Source: a virus (lineage: Duplodnaviria > Heunggongvirae > Uroviricota > Caudoviricetes). From it: a stretch of 64,000 bases of DNA. The position numbers and the translations under genes were made by a program. This document shows positions 30,054 to 63,144 of this stretch, one piece after another. Below the pieces are notes generated by a model, which saw nothing but the letters and a program-made list of their open reading frames with translations, was not told the origin of the DNA and ran no database searches. The stretch is taken from IMG/VR virus record IMGVR_UViG_3300016472_000494; one strand, 5' to 3'. Position 1 is the stretch's first letter. Each line of letters opens with the position of its first letter.

Positions 30054-30411
30054 TAAGTTTTAAGTGCCACTCCGCACCACCAAACGCTAAAACAGCTGCC
30101 AAATGTTCATCAGTCATTTCAGCAAGTTTTACCCAGGTGAGTGGTTCTTTGCCACTTTTACCTCTTGAGCCACGTGTAGCATGCTGTCTTACTTTTTCAA
30201 AAGGTTCATCTGCATATACAGTCAAAAGCTCAATTAATTCAAGATCTAATGCACCATAATGCAGATAGCTCATACCTCCATCAACAGAAGCATGATTAGG
30301 ACAACCACAAGTATTGTAATCATGGCGATGACGACTCACAATTGTTTTTGAACAAACTTTGCATAAAACAGCGTTATACACAATCTGTCTTTCAGTTATT
30401 TCTTTACTCAT
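29992..30411 (-). CDS. Cys/His-rich hypothetical protein (possible zinc-binding)
   Basis: 139 aa; CKVCSK...HRHDYNTCGCPNH. Confidence 0.4.
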   Translation of the reverse strand: MSKEITERQIVYNAVLCKVCSKTIVSRHRHDYNTCGCPNHASVDGGMSYLHYGALDLELIELLTVYADEPFEKVRQHATRGSRGKSGKEPLTWVKLAEMTDEHLAAVLAFGGAEWHLKLIAKELQYRHENNISITDPET

Positions 30412-41936: not shown

Positions 41937-42032
41937 GATAAGTAATATTTTAAGTTTAAACTGTACAAGTTTTAACAACAACAAGTGAGGTGCCTGGGTA
42001 TGATAAGCCAGACACCTTGCACTTGCCGCGTT

Positions 42033-42212
42033 CCCTCTGCACTCAGTTGTTATTGGTTGTACTCAAGACCAATATTCATCACATCTTACCTATCAGGACA
42101 TCCTGTGGTATTATCCACATTACTACCTGCTTTTTATGCAGCACCCATAACTTATGGGTAGTGAGGAGACGCTCTGTGTGATTACAACTGCTCATCCTTG
42201 GGAGGCTGATTA
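42033..42212 (+). repeat. composite structured repeat, unit A (left arm CCCTCTGCACTCAGTTGT ... right arm TTACAACTG plus hairpin)
   Basis: left arm 42033-42056; right arm ttacaactg 42182-42190 then imperfect hairpin tcatcc-ttggga-ggctga 42191-42209. Confidence 0.6.
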
Positions 42213-42427
42213 ACTAGCCGTTAGTGTACATTTCTGTTCCTCATACGGTACGTTTATTAATCAGTGTGGTTTTACATCTTAGCTGAACAGTGTACATACA
42301 AGTGGGTTATCCCTTGCTTGATTGCAATGAGCTGGTCTAAGAAGTCTTCATATCCACGTGAGACTGGTGCATTAAACGCGTGTCTTTCCACGCTGTCACC
42401 ACGTTTCTTGTCTTAGTGTGGTTAACT

Positions 42428-42630
42428 TGGTAGTCAGGACAGGAATCGAACCTGTATGCCATTTGTGGTTTTCTCTTATTACTGTTGCAACAGTACCACC
42501 AGCGTTTTGCAAATTCTGTATGTTGTCCGCTTACTTCTAACATACAATATCAACCTTGCGGGTCAATCTTCGCGTCTACCATATCCAGCACATACTATTA
42601 CTCTTTGTGCCTTCATTCCGCCACCTGACT
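42428..42630 (-). ncRNA. tRNA-like element 1: acceptor stem, T-arm and encoded CCA present, but ~200 nt long with an insertion in the D-region (disrupted or intron-bearing tRNA, or tRNA-derived sRNA)
   Basis: minus strand 5'-AGUCAGG UG GCGG AAU [33-nt insert] UGGUAGACGC ... ACAGG UUCGAUU CCUGU CCUGACU A CCA-3'; acceptor arms exactly complementary; T-loop GGTTCGATTCC seen as ggaatcgaacc at 42441-42451. Confidence 0.45.
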
Positions 42631-42825: not shown

Positions 42826-42967
42826 TGTAGTCAGGACAGGATTTGAACCTGTAAGCAGGATTAAGGTCATGCTTTTTCAAGTTTTCCAGTATCCACTTCA
42901 AGTTCCCTTACCTTTGAAGCGATAACTTTCAAATTCACTTGGCGTCTACCAATTCCGCCACCTGACT
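42826..42967 (-). ncRNA. tRNA-like element 2 (paralogue of element 1, 137 nt): canonical acceptor, D-arm and T-arm with a ~60-nt insertion in the anticodon region
   Basis: 5'-AGUCAGG UG GCG GAAUUGGUAGA CGC ... ACAGG UUCAAAU CCUGU CCUGACU A-3'; D-loop with GG; candidate anticodon stem CAAGU...ACUUG split by an insert. Confidence 0.45.
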
Positions 42968-43364
42968 GTGTTGAGGATGAGAAGTCCTCTGTGTTGTAGA
43001 GGTAAGTTGCAGAAGCGACTCTCTTGACATTCCTTTCTCAAGGGAACAACACAATGTCTAAAAACAACTACAGTGCTACGTTTCAAGTGGCTTATTAAGC
43101 CTTCGTAGGTACAATAAGGTGATCAACCCTCGTAAATACCCTTCATGCACTGCAGTTGTTTTAGACAAAGTATAGCACTAAGTTGTAACTGGTTCTGCGT
43201 CATAAATCCCCTATTTAACTCCACAAAGGAGATTACAACAGCTTACCTCGTATTAATACCCTTTGCACTCAGCTGTGCGGTCAGATTGTTAAGGTATAAT
43301 AGAGAATTAGTAAGTTTTCATGCTAAAAGCATACTTTAACCAGTATGCCAGTGGTGGGTCAAAC

Positions 43365-44252: not shown

Positions 44253-44515
44253 GTTAATTACAAGATTTTAGTGGTCAAAATAATACAAGTAGAAATTTAG
44301 AGCACCAGCGCCAGACATACCAACGCCGCTCGTTGGTCTGCTTTTATCGTTTGATTGTAGTTTGTACCAGGTCAGAAACATTGGGGTGCTTCTGTGTTAA
44401 AGCGCCTGTACAAACCAGAGGAGAGGAGCGGAAATATTTTTCTCACAGATCTGCCTGGCGCGGGTGACTCTAATGCTTCTACAGGGAGAGAGAGACAAGA
44501 CAACAAGGTCTTCCT

Positions 44516-44640
44516 CTTAGCACTTAGTTGTAACAAGTGGCACCCATTTGCAGGTAGGTGTTCTCCAATGGTTTCCTATTACAGCATACGTTCTGTAATA
44601 TTCCCTGCTTGTTCTTGTTACAACTGCTCACGGTAGTGAG
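44516..44640 (+). repeat. composite structured repeat, unit D
   Basis: left arm cttagcacttagttgtaa 44516-44537; right ttacaactg 44618-44626 plus hairpin ctcac-ggta-gtgag 44627-44640. Confidence 0.55.
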
Positions 44641-44865
44641 TTAGTGCTTTGAGAATAATATAAACAGTTGCAATAGTAAGATTAGTGGCGCTATTGCCCT
44701 TAATACCTTGCTACCAAAATACAACTATGCTGCCTAGCATACAACCTCAAGCCATAAATGAATGGCATAGTCAGGTTTACATAGTACTTAATGTGTAGAC
44801 TTACTAGTAAGATAAGTTAATCTACTATTGCAACTGGTGTTTAAAAAAGATCCCTCTGCACTCAG

Positions 44866-45072
44866 TTATAATGTATAAGAAACACCAAAATGTTGCTCAA
44901 TAGCATATAGAGCTTCCCAATCATTACCTAACATTTTATTGTCTATGCAGACATCAACATTTAATTCTTTAGCTCTTTTCCATACATGAAAAGCTTCTTC
45001 AGGTGTATGTGCTATTGAAAATAGCTGCATATATTCTTCACCTGATTCTTTGTTTTTAATAAATTCCACCAT
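44866..45072 (-). CDS. small hypothetical protein
   Basis: 68 aa; its stop is overlapped by a left-arm repeat copy (44849-44873). Confidence 0.3.
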   Translation of the reverse strand: MVEFIKNKESGEEYMQLFSIAHTPEEAFHVWKRAKELNVDVCIDNKMLGNDWEALYAIEQHFGVSYTL

Positions 45073-45118
45073 ATAGTTAAGTTTTATAGTTAAGTTTTAA
45101 GTTTTACAAATCTATTAA

Positions 45119-45269
45119 CCCCTCTGCACTCAGTTGTAATATAGTTTTCACAAAACATGGCTTTACATAGTCATTATGCTATGAAGGTCTTCACCTCACG
45201 GATGTTTGTCACTTTTATTACAACTGCTCACCCTTGGGAAGTGAGTTATGGTGCATTAAAATTGGTTGA
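45119..45269 (+). repeat. composite structured repeat, unit B (most complete copy)
   Basis: left arm ccctctgcactcagttgtaa 45119-45138; right ttacaactg 45218-45226; hairpin ctcac-ccttgggaa-gtgag 45227-45245; tail ttatggtgcattaaaattggttga 45246-45269. Confidence 0.65.
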
Positions 45270-45397
45270 TAACCCACAACCTTTCTAAAGGGGTTCTAGT
45301 AAAAGCTATAACCAAATGGTTAATACAAGGCAGCTAAACCTAGAAACAATTGCAAGACTGAATCTGCCTATCACATTCTTGCTTTACAATTAATATT

Positions 45398-45549
45398 CCC
45401 TCTGCACTCAGTTGTAACAGGGTCCGGTGGTACCTATTTCAATTACCTTTTTTCAAGGAGCTATTTCAGCCTTACTTTCAACCCTTTACGTACAGGTTAC
45501 TTCAGTAGTGTTATTCACACTGGTAATTATTACAACTGAGTGCAAAGAG
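45398..45549 (+). repeat. composite repeat, unit E: perfect-type terminal inverted repeats (~20 bp) flanking ~110 bp (MITE-like)
   Basis: ccctctgcactcagttgtaa (45398-45417) versus ttacaactgagtgcaaagag (45530-45549), reverse complement with a 2-nt indel. Confidence 0.65.
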
Positions 45550-45792
45550 AATAAGTTAATCAAGAAATGAAAAAGACATTGTATGGCAAAAACTGATAGA
45601 TTATAGCCATTTAGTGTCAAAATTTGAGCGTTCTGAGAGGTTTTTGAGGTGATTAAGAGGATGAGGAGGGGTGTGCTACCACTCACGTAACTTCTTGCTC
45701 ATCAACAACTTACTGAACACTTATGTGTCAAAAAAGCAACTGAGAAAGCGCTGTGTAAATACAGCAACTTTCTCAGAAACTTGTTCAAGTGC

Positions 45793-46284
45793 TTAAAGAC
45801 TTGCGTTTTTAGCACTACGTACAGCGTTGAACTCACGTACAGCGTCTGTATTATTATGCTGTACATAGACGTCGTGGTCTTGACCTGTTGGGTCATACAC
45901 AGAAAACCTGATGATGCGTTCACCGTCTACGCAGAGTTCTATACCGTCTTGTCCTGCGCGTTTGACAAAACTGTCAAGGGCTTGAGAAGCGGGGAGACTC
46001 TTGTTGGCAAACTGCTCAAAGAGACTCTCAGGTACTTCGCTCTCCAGGTACTCTTTGATGACGATGTGTCCTGGAAGCGACAGTGTCTTGTTAGACTGCA
46101 CAAAGCGCTGTAGCACTTCGCACTTAGCGCGTAACAGGGTACTACGCTTGCGTTCTCTAATCCAAGTCCCTTCAGGGATCATAGAGGATTGAGACAGTTG
46201 TAAATAGCCGTACTCAGGTTTGTTTTTAAACGGAGTAATGAGGCTGCCTGTGGTGGAGTTGGGGATGATTTGAACTTGAGACAT
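45793..46284 (-). CDS. hypothetical protein, paralogue 1 of a tandem pair (start at Met 46284)
   Basis: 163 aa from MSQVQIIPNSTTGSLITPF...; ~45% identity by eye with the 46540..47040 product; the track N-terminal extension is low-complexity and lacks homology. Confidence 0.5.
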   Translation of the reverse strand: MSQVQIIPNSTTGSLITPFKNKPEYGYLQLSQSSMIPEGTWIRERKRSTLLRAKCEVLQRFVQSNKTLSLPGHIVIKEYLESEVPESLFEQFANKSLPASQALDSFVKRAGQDGIELCVDGERIIRFSVYDPTGQDHDVYVQHNNTDAVREFNAVRSAKNASL

Positions 46285-46317
46285 AGGTAAAAAGTTTGGT
46301 TTTAAGTGTGAATTGAT

Positions 46318-46400
46318 GGGGGGGTTGAAGGTTGTCTGTACTAAGTCTGTTCTCAGAGTTGTACTCAAAGGGGGTTTGAGGGTTGTGTTGAGGGTTGTAC
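46318..46400. repeat. G-rich degenerate tandem repeats GGGTTGA(A/G)GGTTGT upstream of paralogue 1
   Basis: ggggttgaaggttgt (46321-46335), gggtttgagggttgt (46371-46385), gttgagggttgt (46386-46397); similar ggggggttgcaggttgcag at 47089-47107 upstream of paralogue 2 and gggggttgaaggttgg at 47736-47751. Confidence 0.55.
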
Positions 46401-46539: not shown

Positions 46540-47040
46540 TTACGCAGGCAGTGTGGCACTGTTTGCGTTGACAGCTGCGCGGAACTCTGCGACCTCACTG
46601 ACATTGTCGTGGGCTACAGAGATATCAGCCTGCGTGCCAGAGGCATCGTAGTCTGAGAAACGCAGAATGCGCTGACCGTTTTTGGTGAGCGCAACGCCGT
46701 CTTTGCCTGCGCGTTTCAGGAACGGCTGAACAGCCTGCTCGTAAGAGAGGTTCTTGTTCAGGCGCGTAGCATAGTTTTCAGGGAGTTCGTCTTCAAGGAA
46801 CTCGCGAACAACAATGCGTCCTGGCAGCGTGAGCGTTTTGCCGTGCTGTGCTACAAAGCTCTCCAAGACAGAGGTCTTAGCGCGTAGCAAAGCACTGCGG
46901 CGTTTTTCCTCCAACCAGCCGCCGTCGCGCTGAATCATTTCAACAGACTGCAGTTGGAGGTAGCTGTAGTCTGGGTTGCTGTTAAACGGTGTGATAAGAG
47001 CACCTGTCTGAGCATTGGGGGTGATTTGAACTTTGTTCAT
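46540..47040 (-). CDS. hypothetical protein, paralogue 2 of the tandem pair
   Basis: 166 aa; MNKVQITPNAQTGALITPF...; shared blocks LLRAK, TL(S/T)LPG(H/R)IV(I/V)(K/R)E(Y/F)LE, KRAG(Q/K)DG. Confidence 0.5.
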   Translation of the reverse strand: MNKVQITPNAQTGALITPFNSNPDYSYLQLQSVEMIQRDGGWLEEKRRSALLRAKTSVLESFVAQHGKTLTLPGRIVVREFLEDELPENYATRLNKNLSYEQAVQPFLKRAGKDGVALTKNGQRILRFSDYDASGTQADISVAHDNVSEVAEFRAAVNANSATLPA

Positions 47041-47130
47041 GGTAGTTTGGATTTGGGTTTAGTGAAACAAAATGAACTGAATGAAAAGGGGGGTTGCAGG
47101 TTGCAGTGAGCCACAAAGGCTGTGAGAGGA

Positions 47131-47358: not shown

Positions 47359-47586
47359 GAGAATTGGGTTTATTGGTTAATGGTGTATCAGTGTGGTTTC
47401 ACATCTTAGATATTTTACAAGAGTTAAGCCTTGATATAAATCTGGTTTCCTCAAAACTAAGAAGTCTTCATACCCAAAGGTTAGTGCAAAGAGAAATTTG
47501 ATTAACTAGACGAGTCTGCTATCGTCCACCTACGTTTTAGTGCAACCTTTCTTGAGGTGTAGTTTCGGTTAATCAAATGAGTTATC

Positions 47587-47730
47587 TCTTTGCACTTAGT
47601 TGTAAGTCTGCCTGGCAAATATTATTACAGTTTAAATCGTGATCTGATTAGTACACGAAGGCTGTAAACCAGGTATTTCTTACAACTGTCAGCCCTTGGG
47701 AAGCTGAAATGGTGCATTAAAATTGGTTGA
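47587..47730 (+). repeat. composite structured repeat, unit C
   Basis: left arm ctctttgcacttagttgtaag 47587-47607; right ttacaactg 47680-47688; hairpin tcagc-ccttgggaa-gctga 47689-47707; tail aatggtgcattaaaattggttga 47708-47730. Confidence 0.65.
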
Positions 47731-47832
47731 ACACCAATGGGGGTTGAAGGTTGGTCAAACGCTTTAAAGACCAAGAGAGACGCTCCTGTGCAGAGCGTCC
47801 CTCCTGTGTCTGCGTTGCAGGTTGGATAACTT

Positions 47833-61500: not shown

Positions 61501-63144
61501 ATGAGCACACCAGTTTTAAACAACGGTCTCTTCCTGCGCGACACTAACTACAAGGTTAGTTCGCACGTGGACAGCTACCACTTGGTGAACATGCTGAAGA
61601 GTGCAGAACCCATGGACTTGGGTCCTGTTGATCTTTGGGCCATGACCCAAAAGGTAGAAATGCCTCTTTACCAGATGGCATCTTTCGGTGGCAAGAACAC
61701 CATCACTGTAGACAACCCTCGTGGTGAATACAAGTGGCAAACCCCAATTGTTCAGGACCTTCCCTACATTGTAGAGGACGTGGAGCCTAGCTTAACATCT
61801 CTTGGTCAAGATGGTACAACCTTCAAGATCAAATTGAATAAGCGCAGCTTTGGTCATGGTGACATCATCACCTATGACAAGTACAAAGGTGCTGAACTTT
61901 ACATTACAGCTGAGGACATTCTTCCTTCTGGCGATGGTTTCGTATACACTGTTCAGTTGGTGAACAACGACAATCAGAAGACTTTGAGCAAAGTGTATCT
62001 TAAGCCTGGCACCAAATTCTTCCGCAAAGGTTCTGCCCGCGGGGAGTATGGTGAGCGTTTCTCTGACATTGGAGAACTGAGCGCTGGCTTCCGCGAGTTC
62101 TACAACTTTGTAGGTGGCGCAGAAGCTCACGTTCACTACTCTGTTTCTAGCCGCGCAGAGCTTATGATGAAAGGTGGCATGAACGCTGATGGTACTGTAC
62201 CTGTTACAGAGATCTGGCGCTCATTTGACGCCAACATTGCCAAAGATCCTTCTTTGACCAACATTGACGCTATGGTGTCTAAGATGGGTAAAGAATACAT
62301 CAAGAAGGCTTATGACTCTGGAACCTTGACTCGTTCTTTTGTCACCAAGATGGAAGCTGCTCACTTGACCAAAATTGCTAATGACATTGAAACATACCTC
62401 ATGTGGGGACAAGGTGGACGCATTAAGCAAGATGGTCCAGACGACATTCGCCTGTCTGTAGGTTTGTGGAGCCAGCTTGACAACTCTTTCAAGCGTATCT
62501 ACAACAAGAGCTCTTTCAACCTTGAGTTGTTCCGCTCTGAGATCTTCAACTTCTACAATGGTAAAGTTGAGTTCAAAGGTCCAGATCCTCAGCGTCAGAT
62601 CATTGTTCAAACTGGCATGGCCGGTATGAAGATGGTCAATGAAGCTATCAAGAAAGAAGCCTTCAACACTGTAGGTGCTGGTTTGGTTGCTAACATTGAC
62701 AAGTCTGGTTTGAACGCTATCAGCGGTAGCAACGCCATGGACCTGAACTTTGGTTTTGCTTTCACCAGCTATACTATTCCTTTCTTGGCAAACGTAAAGT
62801 TTGTGTTGAACCCAGCGTTTGACAACGTACATACCAACGACATTGAGAATCCCATCATTGATGGCTTCCCATTGTCTTCTTACAACTTCATCGTGTTTGA
62901 CATCACTGACAACACCAACGACAACATCTTCTTGCTGAAGTTGAAGTGGGACAGTGAGCTCAAATGGTTCTATCAAAACGGTACCATGGATTACATGGGT
63001 CGTACTCAAGGGTTCGCTTCTTCTGGAAACTTTAATGGATACCGCGTATTCATGACCCAGACTATGCCTTCCATCTGGGTGAAAGACCCTACTAAGGTTC
63101 TTAAGATTGTGATGAGGAACCCCATCACTGGCGGCTCGTTCTAA
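61501..63144 (+). CDS. major capsid protein candidate (by position and size)
   Basis: 547 aa following the scaffold-like gene; followed by two hairpins. Confidence 0.45.
   Translation: MSTPVLNNGLFLRDTNYKVSSHVDSYHLVNMLKSAEPMDLGPVDLWAMTQKVEMPLYQMASFGGKNTITVDNPRGEYKWQTPIVQDLPYIVEDVEPSLTSLGQDGTTFKIKLNKRSFGHGDIITYDKYKGAELYITAEDILPSGDGFVYTVQLVNNDNQKTLSKVYLKPGTKFFRKGSARGEYGERFSDIGELSAGFREFYNFVGGAEAHVHYSVSSRAELMMKGGMNADGTVPVTEIWRSFDANIAKDPSLTNIDAMVSKMGKEYIKKAYDSGTLTRSFVTKMEAAHLTKIANDIETYLMWGQGGRIKQDGPDDIRLSVGLWSQLDNSFKRIYNKSSFNLELFRSEIFNFYNGKVEFKGPDPQRQIIVQTGMAGMKMVNEAIKKEAFNTVGAGLVANIDKSGLNAISGSNAMDLNFGFAFTSYTIPFLANVKFVLNPAFDNVHTNDIENPIIDGFPLSSYNFIVFDITDNTNDNIFLLKLKWDSELKWFYQNGTMDYMGRTQGFASSGNFNGYRVFMTQTMPSIWVKDPTKVLKIVMRNPITGGSF

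Follow-up and report, generated by a model that had tools for sequence, protein, structure and literature searches.

A repeated hairpin in a crAss-like phage genome is probably one arm of a twister-class self-cleaving ribozyme

In a stretch of 64,000 nucleotides (nt) from the tailed phage record IMGVR_UViG_3300016472_000494 (in the following: the window), a hairpin with a constant loop and a changing stem recurs in several units, named A to D in a preliminary description, and is followed by a conserved tail, which raises the question of what kind of element this hairpin belongs to. The quoted sequences are all present where that description placed them. On the plus strand, unit B reads TTACAACTG and then CTCAC-CCTTGGGAA-GTGAG (45227-45245), unit C reads TTACAACTG and then TCAGC-CCTTGGGAA-GCTGA (47689-47707), and CTCAC-GGTA-GTGAG stands in unit D (44627-44640). 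Units B and C share the tail ATGGTGCATTAAAATTGGTTGA (27 nt, 93% identity), and the fragment ACTGGTGCATTAAACG lies at 42364. The loop was thought to be invariant also in unit A, but this holds for units B and C only, as unit A reads CCTTGGGAG, one base off. Likewise, the one-mismatch stem TCATC/GCTGA ascribed to unit A is a mispairing, the real partner of the AUGAG arm being CUCAC about 165 nt away (42360-42356).

The surroundings of the hairpin are also repeated. There are 8 exact copies of TTACAACTG in the 64 kilobases (kb), all of them between 42182 and 47688, with 1.18 expected and none of 100 shuffles reaching 8. A second repeated motif, CCCTCTGCACTCAGTTGTAA, accompanies each hairpin at a distance of 75-150 nt on the left side. 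The final 9 bases of this motif are the complement of TTACAACTG and its TGCAC is the complement of GTGCA within the tail, and in RNAfold predictions the hairpin, the tail and the CCCTCTGCACTCAGTTGTAA pieces join as a three-way junction on either strand. Hairpin and tail are thus not a free-standing unit, as had been assumed with the partner sequence CUGAGUGCAGAGGG, about 100 nt away, being missed, and the element is not confined to 45218-45269 but is far larger and read on the opposite strand, as judged from an asymmetry of G-U pairs and A-C mismatches described below. The minus strand is also the gene strand between about 38 and 51 kb.

As judged from sequence, the minus strand encodes a predicted twister self-cleaving ribozyme whose P4/L4 arm is the flagged hairpin, the "tail" would comprise L2, the T2 partner, the P2 5' strand, the predicted cleavage site and the P1/P0 region, and TTACAACTG is the base of the variable P5 stem. 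It is highly likely that the element is a type-P1 twister-class self-cleaving ribozyme, transcribed from the minus strand like the surrounding genes. This label refers to the Rfam twister-P1 class (the class of Roth et al. 2014), with its optional P0 and P5 stems.

In twisters, the stems P1, P2 and P4 are essential and P0, P3 and P5 optional, there are two pseudoknots (T1 and T2) and about ten conserved nucleotides in L1 and L4, and cleavage takes place between a weakly conserved U and a conserved A that adjoins P1 (PMC5408937). P1 has been found to be dispensable, P5 is located on the 3' side of L2, and a P0 hairpin lies immediately upstream of the 5' end (PMC11662667). The rice twister has been printed as GGTGCC-TAA-CACT-GC-CAATG-CCGG-TCCCAAGC-CCGG-ATAAA-AGTG-GAGGG-GGCA (bioRxiv 10.1101/2020.06.20.162982), with CCGGTCCCAAGCCCGG as its P4/L4 (PMC11662667). 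Unit B, the only fully canonical copy in the window, reads uuu-UAA-UGCA-CC-AUAA-CUCAC-UUCCCAAGG-GUGAG-[P5]-AG-UGCA-GAGGG-guu, AUAA being L2 and the P1 3' strand coming after GAGGG, and its parts can be assigned as follows:

45113..45265, minus strand: unit B, a complete type-P1 twister motif with P5, which passes the descriptor (see below) and maps one-for-one onto the rice twister
45264..45281, minus strand: hairpin GGUUGUGGGUUAUCAACC followed by AAUUUU, directly upstream of unit B and listed as terminator-like; either P0-like or terminator-like
45256..45258, minus strand: L1 5' strand U-A-A, matching rice UAA, with the predicted scissile bond between 45258 (U) and 45257 (A)
45250..45255, minus strand: P2 5' strand UGCA (45255-45252), supported by compensated variants, then CC (45251-45250), the proposed T2 partner of the GG in L4
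45227..45245, minus strand: P4 CUCAC/GUGAG with L4 UUCCCAAGG, with covariation in 48 copies; the rice counterpart is CCGG-UCCCAAGC-CCGG
45131..45226, minus strand: P5, a variable hairpin with the base CAGUUGUAA/UUACAACUG and compensated pairing, of which TTACAACTG is the 5' strand
45120..45130, minus strand: 3' core with AG, the P2 3' strand UGCA and the L1 3' strand GAGGG, identical to rice; G 45124 is the candidate catalytic G and 45122-45120 the T1 GGG

The order of elements is identical in unit B and the rice twister, and 16 of the 17 non-helical core residues agree: all five of the L1 3' strand, all three of the L1 5' strand, seven of the eight in L4 (the conserved positions common to both being U-CCC-AA-G), and the second C of T2. 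The single L4 difference is the last base, C in rice and G in unit B, and as the L2 dinucleotide after P2 shifts from G to C at the same time, the pseudoknot T2 stays possible. Both L4 loops, UUCCCAAGG here and UCCCAAGC in rice, have the form U-(3 T1 nt)-A-A-G-N, with one extra 5' U in the phage. In type-1 copies, to which unit B belongs, U-A-A directly precedes UGCA, like in the rice CC-UAA-CACU, and UGCA-GAGGG is the counterpart of the rice AGUG-GAGGG. RNAfold on unit B recovers P2, P4 and P5.

Copies outside the window were collected by two IMG/VR scans, which used the left motif and the hairpin side, respectively, as anchor and gave at least 120 loci each (L numbers denote fetched loci), and these loci were searched with a Python descriptor. 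The 189 hits included about 50-57 AT-rich false positives, which were filtered by demanding family-typical T1 and T2 sequences, leaving at least 132 copies in 112 fetched loci with up to 4 copies per locus. All copies have the same form when read in the sense of the minus strand of the window, namely a U-run, UAA, UGCAC, C, an A-rich linker, a 5-base-pair (bp) stem around UUCCCAAGG, then CAG..., a variable hairpin, ...CUG, A, GUGCA and GAGGG. The order P1-L1-P2-L2-P4-L4 can be read in unit B and in the 132 descriptor matches, with P5 on the 3' side of L2, and more than 130 copies show hardly any variation in the conserved L1 and L4 residues of twisters, among them the G of GAGGG and the cleavage-site A. 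The nucleotide 5' of the AA is a U in 145 of the 189 unfiltered hits (about 57 of which are AT-rich false positives).

The covariation claimed for the hairpin stem is borne out by these copies. When 48 copies are aligned after trimming of the variable hairpin (alignment A1), all seven scored pairs of the stem are paired in every copy and five of them vary on both sides; the two loop-proximal U-G pairs of the P4 hairpin do not vary. Over the whole structure, 92.9% of the cells in A1 are paired as compared to 86.1% in shuffles, none of 500 shuffles reaches the observed value, and pairing falls to 32-52% when the partners are slid by 1-3 columns. Among the descriptor matches, P4 has at least 26 distinct stem sequences. 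With such compensatory changes in more than 100 independent copies, the view that the hairpin belongs to a selected RNA structure can be kept.

The pseudoknot T1 is paired in 97.9% of the cells of A1, where the usual CCC/GGG is replaced by CCA/UGG in 7 copies and by CAC/GUG in 1, and the wider descriptor search gives 8 and 7 copies of these variants, respectively. P2 has the compensated variants UGCG/CGCA and UGUA/UACA. P5 is paired to 91-98% over 8 bp with many pair types in the copies sampled from the 5' half; this covariation becomes visible because sampling anchored on the 5' half no longer fixes TTACAAC. In this hairpin-side sample, the TTACAAC helix itself changes with full compensation (e.g. 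CAGAUGUAC/GUACAUCUG, CUAUUGUAC/GUACAAUAG, CAGUCCUGU/ACAGGGCUG). The length of P5 ranges from 16 to 312 nt in the descriptor matches (less the 2-nt L2 3' strand). In P1, 3.2 of 5 positions are paired as compared to 2.51 +/- 0.10 with shuffled partners, its first four pairs being paired in 82, 72, 67 and 60% with many pair types, and some copies have a P1 of 6-9 bp (L185, and unit A in the window). As for the strand, the first 9 bp of P5 contain 32 G-U pairs and 7 A-C mismatches when read in the minus-strand sense, which means that the folded strand is the gene-sense strand and points to RNA.

The constant parts of the preliminary description thereby find a place: the loop would be invariant because it holds the pseudoknot nucleotides (CCC for T1 and GG for T2), and the conservation of the tail would be due to the predicted cleavage site and the P2 5' strand within it.

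Several observations nevertheless weigh against the assignment to the twister class. The twister models of Rfam 15 gave no match, be it at the gathering score or at E <= 10, in searches of the window, the 7-kb region, several loci and 100-140 nt around the compact copies L133 and L185, while the same searches did return transfer RNA (tRNA), transfer-messenger RNA (tmRNA), GOLLD-like RNA and hatchet. The length of P5, a missing P3, the additional base in L4 or speed filters may account for this miss. P2 has an apparent fifth pair, as opposed to the four described for twisters: the nucleotide after the P2 UGCA (the first C after the 5' strand in unit B) covaries with the one before the P2 3' strand (G 45129), with C-G in 119 and U-A in 11 copies, which suggests either a fifth P2 pair or an alternative to the first T2 pair. 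L4 has the extra U already mentioned, P1 is weak in unit B, and T2 is compatible in sequence only (CC and GG stand at the expected positions), its only support being a single UC/GA case and U-G wobbles in 11-12 copies. A strong, stable, terminator-like hairpin with a U-run directly precedes about half of the copies, and if these hairpins are efficient terminators, the ribozymes would see little but read-through RNA. The U-run doubles as the P1 5' strand, and the upstream hairpin fits the description of P0. The 3' half, furthermore, also occurs alone or in plain inverted repeats (units D and E and the orphan halves described below), which hints at an extra role or at frequent decay. Finally, the assignment is built on sequence, architecture and covariation, and self-cleavage is a prediction. 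It is because of the missing Rfam match, the apparently five-paired P2 and the near-invariant T2 that we call the twister-class motif very probably active and do not go further.

The strongest competitor of a twister is a structured but non-catalytic RNA, in which the three-way junction and the pseudoknot would form a protein site, a processing site of the type used by ribonuclease III (RNase III) or a 5' stabiliser, with a twister likeness by chance or descent. This would be in line with the silent Rfam models and with the apparent fifth P2 pair, and also with units D and E and type 3, where the catalytic loops are gone but a long uninterrupted helix built on the same 3' strand has stayed, such a helix being just what a double-strand-specific nuclease needs. 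It does not explain, though, why the residues conserved in L1 and L4 of twisters are near-invariant in so many copies and why T1 covaries exactly as in twisters, and there are hatchet ribozymes nearby (see below). A non-catalytic RNA is therefore unlikely.

Still less likely is a function at the level of DNA, in which the 20-mer TTACAACTGAGTGCAGAGGG and the following AT-rich stretch would serve either as a promoter of the phage or as a module for recombination, like the promoter-early-stem-loops (PeSLs) of T4, the upstream complements being incidental, or in which an N4-like DNA hairpin would be the promoter. The location after terminator-like hairpins and 20-60 nt before open reading frames (ORFs) would suit a promoter, the 20-mer exists without the ribozyme 5' half at 44871-44852 and 43276-43256, and recombination at the repeats has taken place in a related locus (L009). 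In addition, phi14:2, a crAss-like phage, has a virion RNA polymerase that transcribes single-stranded DNA, and its early promoters are unknown (bioRxiv 10.1101/2020.03.07.982082). But double-stranded DNA needs no compensation, and yet four helices and a pseudoknot covary, with a wobble asymmetry that favours the sense strand and not the template strand. With anchoring on the 5' half, TTACAAC varies freely together with its partner and the twister core alone stays fixed, and P1 is formed by the upstream U-run together with the AT-rich stretch behind GAGGG. Consensus scans for a T7-like or sigma-70-like promoter in TTACAACTGAGTGCAGAGGG and the AT-rich stretch, which is P1, remained at chance level. 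The promoter hairpin of N4 has a stem of 5-7 bp and a loop of 3 nt. Described in PMC4496689 as a short template-strand DNA hairpin just upstream of the start, this type of virion RNA polymerase promoter was rejected, as the loop here has 9 nt, the pseudoknot and helices are more than 100 nt apart, and the wobbles favour the sense strand.

It is very improbable that the copies are miniature mobile elements which have terminal inverted repeats and use TTAA as insertion site. Unit E indeed has a 24-nt inverted repeat flanked by TTAA-like sequences, and there are many copies per genome with unrelated cores, but the spacing between GAGGG and TTAA is irregular (1 to more than 40 nt), 21 of the 66 copies that extend far enough downstream have no TTAA at all, P1 explains the flanking complementarity, and few copies have the plain structure of an inverted repeat. 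Least likely of all is the idea brought up in the preliminary description, that the element imitates a host RNA, for instance a CRISPR repeat as RNA anti-CRISPRs do. It finds no support, for although the base of P5 is GTTG...CAAC and some type VI-B repeats of Bacteroidota begin with GTTG and end with CAAC, P5 covaries freely over 16-312 nt and hence is no fixed repeat-sized unit, no CRISPR-like array or repeat match was seen (host repeats were not compared), and the twister consensus accounts for the invariant loop and the tail residue by residue.

Other candidates were discarded as well. The core-site consensus of integron attC sites is not present, the strand order of hepatitis delta virus (HDV)-like, pistol, hammerhead and twister-sister ribozymes misfits on comparison by hand, and exonuclease-resistant RNAs of the flavivirus type have a similar three-way junction with a pseudoknot, but the match to the twister is far more specific.

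With a twister as the preferred assignment, the remaining units of the window can be ordered as relatives and derivatives of unit B:

42027..42379, minus strand: unit A, "type 2", with an intact core and about 150 nt (two conserved stems) inserted in L4
42369-42366, minus strand: unit A, P2 5' strand; followed by the P4 5' strand (42360-42356) and the inserted stems (42355-42206)
42205-42196, minus strand: unit A, L4 core; followed by the P4 3' strand (42195-42191) and P5 (42190-42044)
42041-42038, minus strand: unit A, P2 3' strand; followed by GAGGG (42037-42033)
42378-42373 with 42032-42027, minus strand: unit A, P1 of 6 bp (CGCGUU/AACGCG) spanning 340 nt
47586..47719, minus strand: unit C, with a canonical 5' half, the predicted cut site 47719/47718 and P4/L4 at 47707-47689
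44514..44653, minus strand: unit D, in which P2 (AGCA/UGCU), P4 and P5 are kept, L4 is a tetraloop UACC and the L1 3' strand is AAGAG
45394..45553, strand not assigned: unit E, a 24-nt inverted repeat (92% complementary) with a 112-nt core
44852..44871, minus strand: orphan 3' half UUAUAACUGAGUGCAGAGGG, overlapping the stop codon of a 68-amino-acid ORF
43256-43276, minus strand: second orphan 3' half

Unit A explains the solitary fragment at 42364, as this is the 5' part of the unit (UUU|AAUGCACCAGUCUCAC at 42374-42356, about 165 nt upstream of the L4 core, with a predicted cut at 42372/42371), split off by the insertion in L4. The insertion is located exactly at the position of the extra L4 U of type 1, and P1 and P2, both long-range, appear in the minimum-energy structure from RNAfold. 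The loop-closing pair of P4 is a C-A mismatch in unit A. The same split layout is found in 11 of 18 type-2 copies, and P4 covaries there as well (CUCAU/AUGAG in L017 and L018). The inserted 60-190 nt are conserved in sequence and form two stems, with up to about 200 nt between the predicted cleavage site and the catalytic loop. The module has the form GUGGAUAUGAAGACUUCUUAG ... CUAAGAUGUGAAACCAC-A-CUGAUUAA ... UUAAUCAG, is present at 42206-42355 (minus strand) in the window and in L017, L018, L029, L062, L086, L113 and L204, and has no Rfam match; an isolated copy of its first stem lies at 47476-47387 (minus strand), just upstream of a 75-amino-acid ORF. Through this module, cleavage might become dependent on a protein or ligand.

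Units A and B look intact. The 3' half of unit C has ...GUGCAAAGAG in place of ...GUGCAGAGGG and has lost GAGGG (AAGAG), and thereby the candidate catalytic G and T1, whereas a close homologue in L009 retains GAGGG, and unit C is probably inactive. Units D and E, which have kept helices but lost the catalytic loops, would be non-catalytic hairpin derivatives: the type of unit D also occurs in L006, L028, L050 and L111, and unit E is built from the twister 3' half and its complement, with neither P4/L4 nor UAA. Between the first orphan 3' half and unit D there are about 210 non-coding nt (44640-44852, minus strand) with a perfect 14-nt inverted repeat (44665-44678 / 44823-44836), which may be another small RNA. 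A weak match of covariance model R1 (19 bits) at 30243-30274 (plus strand, CUAAUGCACCAUA..UGCAGAUAGC), amid minus-strand ORFs and without P4/L4, is probably due to chance.

The window encodes a Crassvirus-type major capsid protein at 61501-63144 (Pfam PF23898, E = 1.9e-32) that has relatives on several hundred IMG/VR contigs, and on two of the copy-bearing contigs the capsid protein is about 79-80% identical to that of the window (L002 = L292, L030 = L295). Among 185,579 species genomes, real copies were found only on a few small contigs of metagenome-assembled genomes, including Chitinophagaceae and Sediminibacterium bins, which is a weak pointer to freshwater Bacteroidota as hosts. The other matches were coincidences within coding sequences, with a conserved AAAATGCACCAGTGCGGNCTTCCCAAGGAAATGGC in many unrelated bacteria (L214-L216, L222-L224, L227, L231, L242, L243, L245, L248), which calls for caution when such ribozymes are scanned for with short patterns. 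A search of a full-text library found no paper on self-cleaving ribozymes in crAss-like phages, and neither the 6.6-kb region nor the 5' half had a BLAST match among GenBank phages. Structured RNAs of other kinds were met in related contigs, namely GOLLD-like RNA (100.8 bits, which is below the gathering score of 150) immediately upstream of two twisters and tmRNA genes in three related phage contigs (L146 4367-4761 (+), L133 69-403 (-), L156 7798-8271 (+), L006 5468-5866 (-)).

In the window, the elements lie within 6 kb (42-48 kb) among small ORFs without annotated function, two tRNA-like genes and long non-coding intervals; PHROGs identified only PhoH among the small neighbouring ORFs. The two tRNA-like genes (42828-42967 and 42425-42630, both on the minus strand) have long internal insertions and near-identical acceptor and T-arm ends. 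ARAGORN detects neither of them, and the first scores 33.7 bits against the Rfam tRNA model (gathering score 29), with about 67 extra nt. Two paralogous ORFs of 166 amino acids (45793-46293 and 46540-47040, minus strand) are 72% identical over 83 nt near their starts and have no PHROG match. The motif CAACC(U/C)NCAACCCCC(C), read on the minus strand, stands at 46309-46334, 46360-46397, 47078-47103 and 47728-47753 (plus-strand coordinates) in a GC-richer part at 46-48 kb, upstream of minus-strand gene starts (e.g. about 25-35 nt before 46293 and 47040), and may be a separate regulatory signal.

An ATG-started ORF begins 20-60 nt after GAGGG in 34 of 118 copies (about 30%), in L097 and L007 the 5' end of a tRNA-like gene lies 6-37 nt downstream of a copy, and unit A is preceded by a tRNA-like gene at a distance of about 55 nt. 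Hatchet ribozymes above the Rfam gathering score (51) are present in L015 (6387-6553 (+), 79.3 bits) and L002 (5635-5767 (+), 78.1 bits), on the same strand as the twister copies and about 1 kb upstream of them; the Rfam search found none in the window. Bacterial twister and hatchet ribozymes are known near phage genes, and it has been suggested that they may process polycistronic transcripts (PMC8782182, PMC6765202).

From this, the following mechanism can be proposed. In the transcript, the CCC of the loop would pair with the GGG of GAGGG (T1) and the loop GG could pair with CC (T2), and the RNA would then cut itself between U and A. The upstream RNA would be left with a 3' hairpin, a U-run and a 2',3'-cyclic phosphate, and the downstream messenger RNA would begin with a 5'-OH and the folded ribozyme, 20-60 nt before the next start codon in about 30% of the copies. 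The copies would thus punctuate read-through or polycistronic transcripts of a cassette-like region with small genes and tRNA-like genes, and they probably cut long transcripts into single-gene pieces. That the cutting would take place between gene cassettes is suggested by the upstream hairpins, the nearby ORF and tRNA starts, the hatchets and the published reviews. The repeats may have a second effect, since L009 (7712-7889) joins the 5' half and core of unit C (47735-47586) to the sequence following unit E (45398-45350), and this junction removes 47586-45417, about 2.2 kb with three ORFs. This implies a deletion or recombination between two ribozyme 3' halves, and the repeated copies would thus double as recombination points.

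In the comparison with known systems, twisters of type P1 are closest, sharing the order of elements, U-A-A before P2, GAGGG after the P2 3' strand, the L4 form U-CCC-AA-G-N, a T1 of 3 bp between L4 and L1, a possible 2-nt T2 partner directly after P2, a variable P5 and an upstream hairpin. The phage copies differ in the proposed T2 (CC/GG instead of GC/GC), in the extra L4 U, in the apparently five-paired P2, in the blindness of the Rfam models, in a P5 of up to about 310 nt, and in one subtype with a two-stem L4 insertion of 60-190 nt. The HDV-like theta ribozymes of gut phages (PMC10879173) are likewise a small self-cleaving class in tailed phages with tRNA neighbours and a proposed role in phage RNA processing (cleavage being a prediction for the copies described here), but they have another class and fold, and most of the present copies precede protein ORFs and do not follow tRNAs. 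Hatchets (Rfam RF02678) share the phage contigs, the strand and the intergenic setting at a distance of about 1 kb, but have an unrelated fold and cleave at their own 5' end. The RNase III sites in the early region of T7 cut polycistronic RNA into single-gene messages, and the PeSL cassettes of T4 mediate a modular shuffling of genes via recombination between repeats. Like these, the elements are repeated, sequence-related and structured and lie between small early genes, but the cut would be made by the RNA itself and not by RNase III, and no promoter is known within the element.

The twister class itself is known, and the copies described here would be further twisters, with one possibly new architectural variant (type 2). 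Tentatively, and with clearly less confidence than the class assignment, it may be supposed both that type 2 is a previously undescribed twister architecture and that the cassette set of intact copies, hairpin derivatives and orphan halves acts both as punctuation and as joints for recombination, by which small early genes are shuffled between crAss-like phages of freshwater. An unexplained hairpin with a tail becomes a testable ribozyme with cut predictions to the single nucleotide (45258/45257 and 42372/42371, minus strand), and since these copies are overlooked by the standard models of Rfam, annotations of phage genomes probably contain too few such ribozymes. Intact copies together with decayed, L4-expanded and hairpin-converted ones form a natural series for studies on what a twister tolerates and on cassette-driven gene shuffling, in a large environmental group of crAss-like phages that would carry several twisters per genome, sometimes together with hatchets, in a region of small genes and tRNA-like genes.

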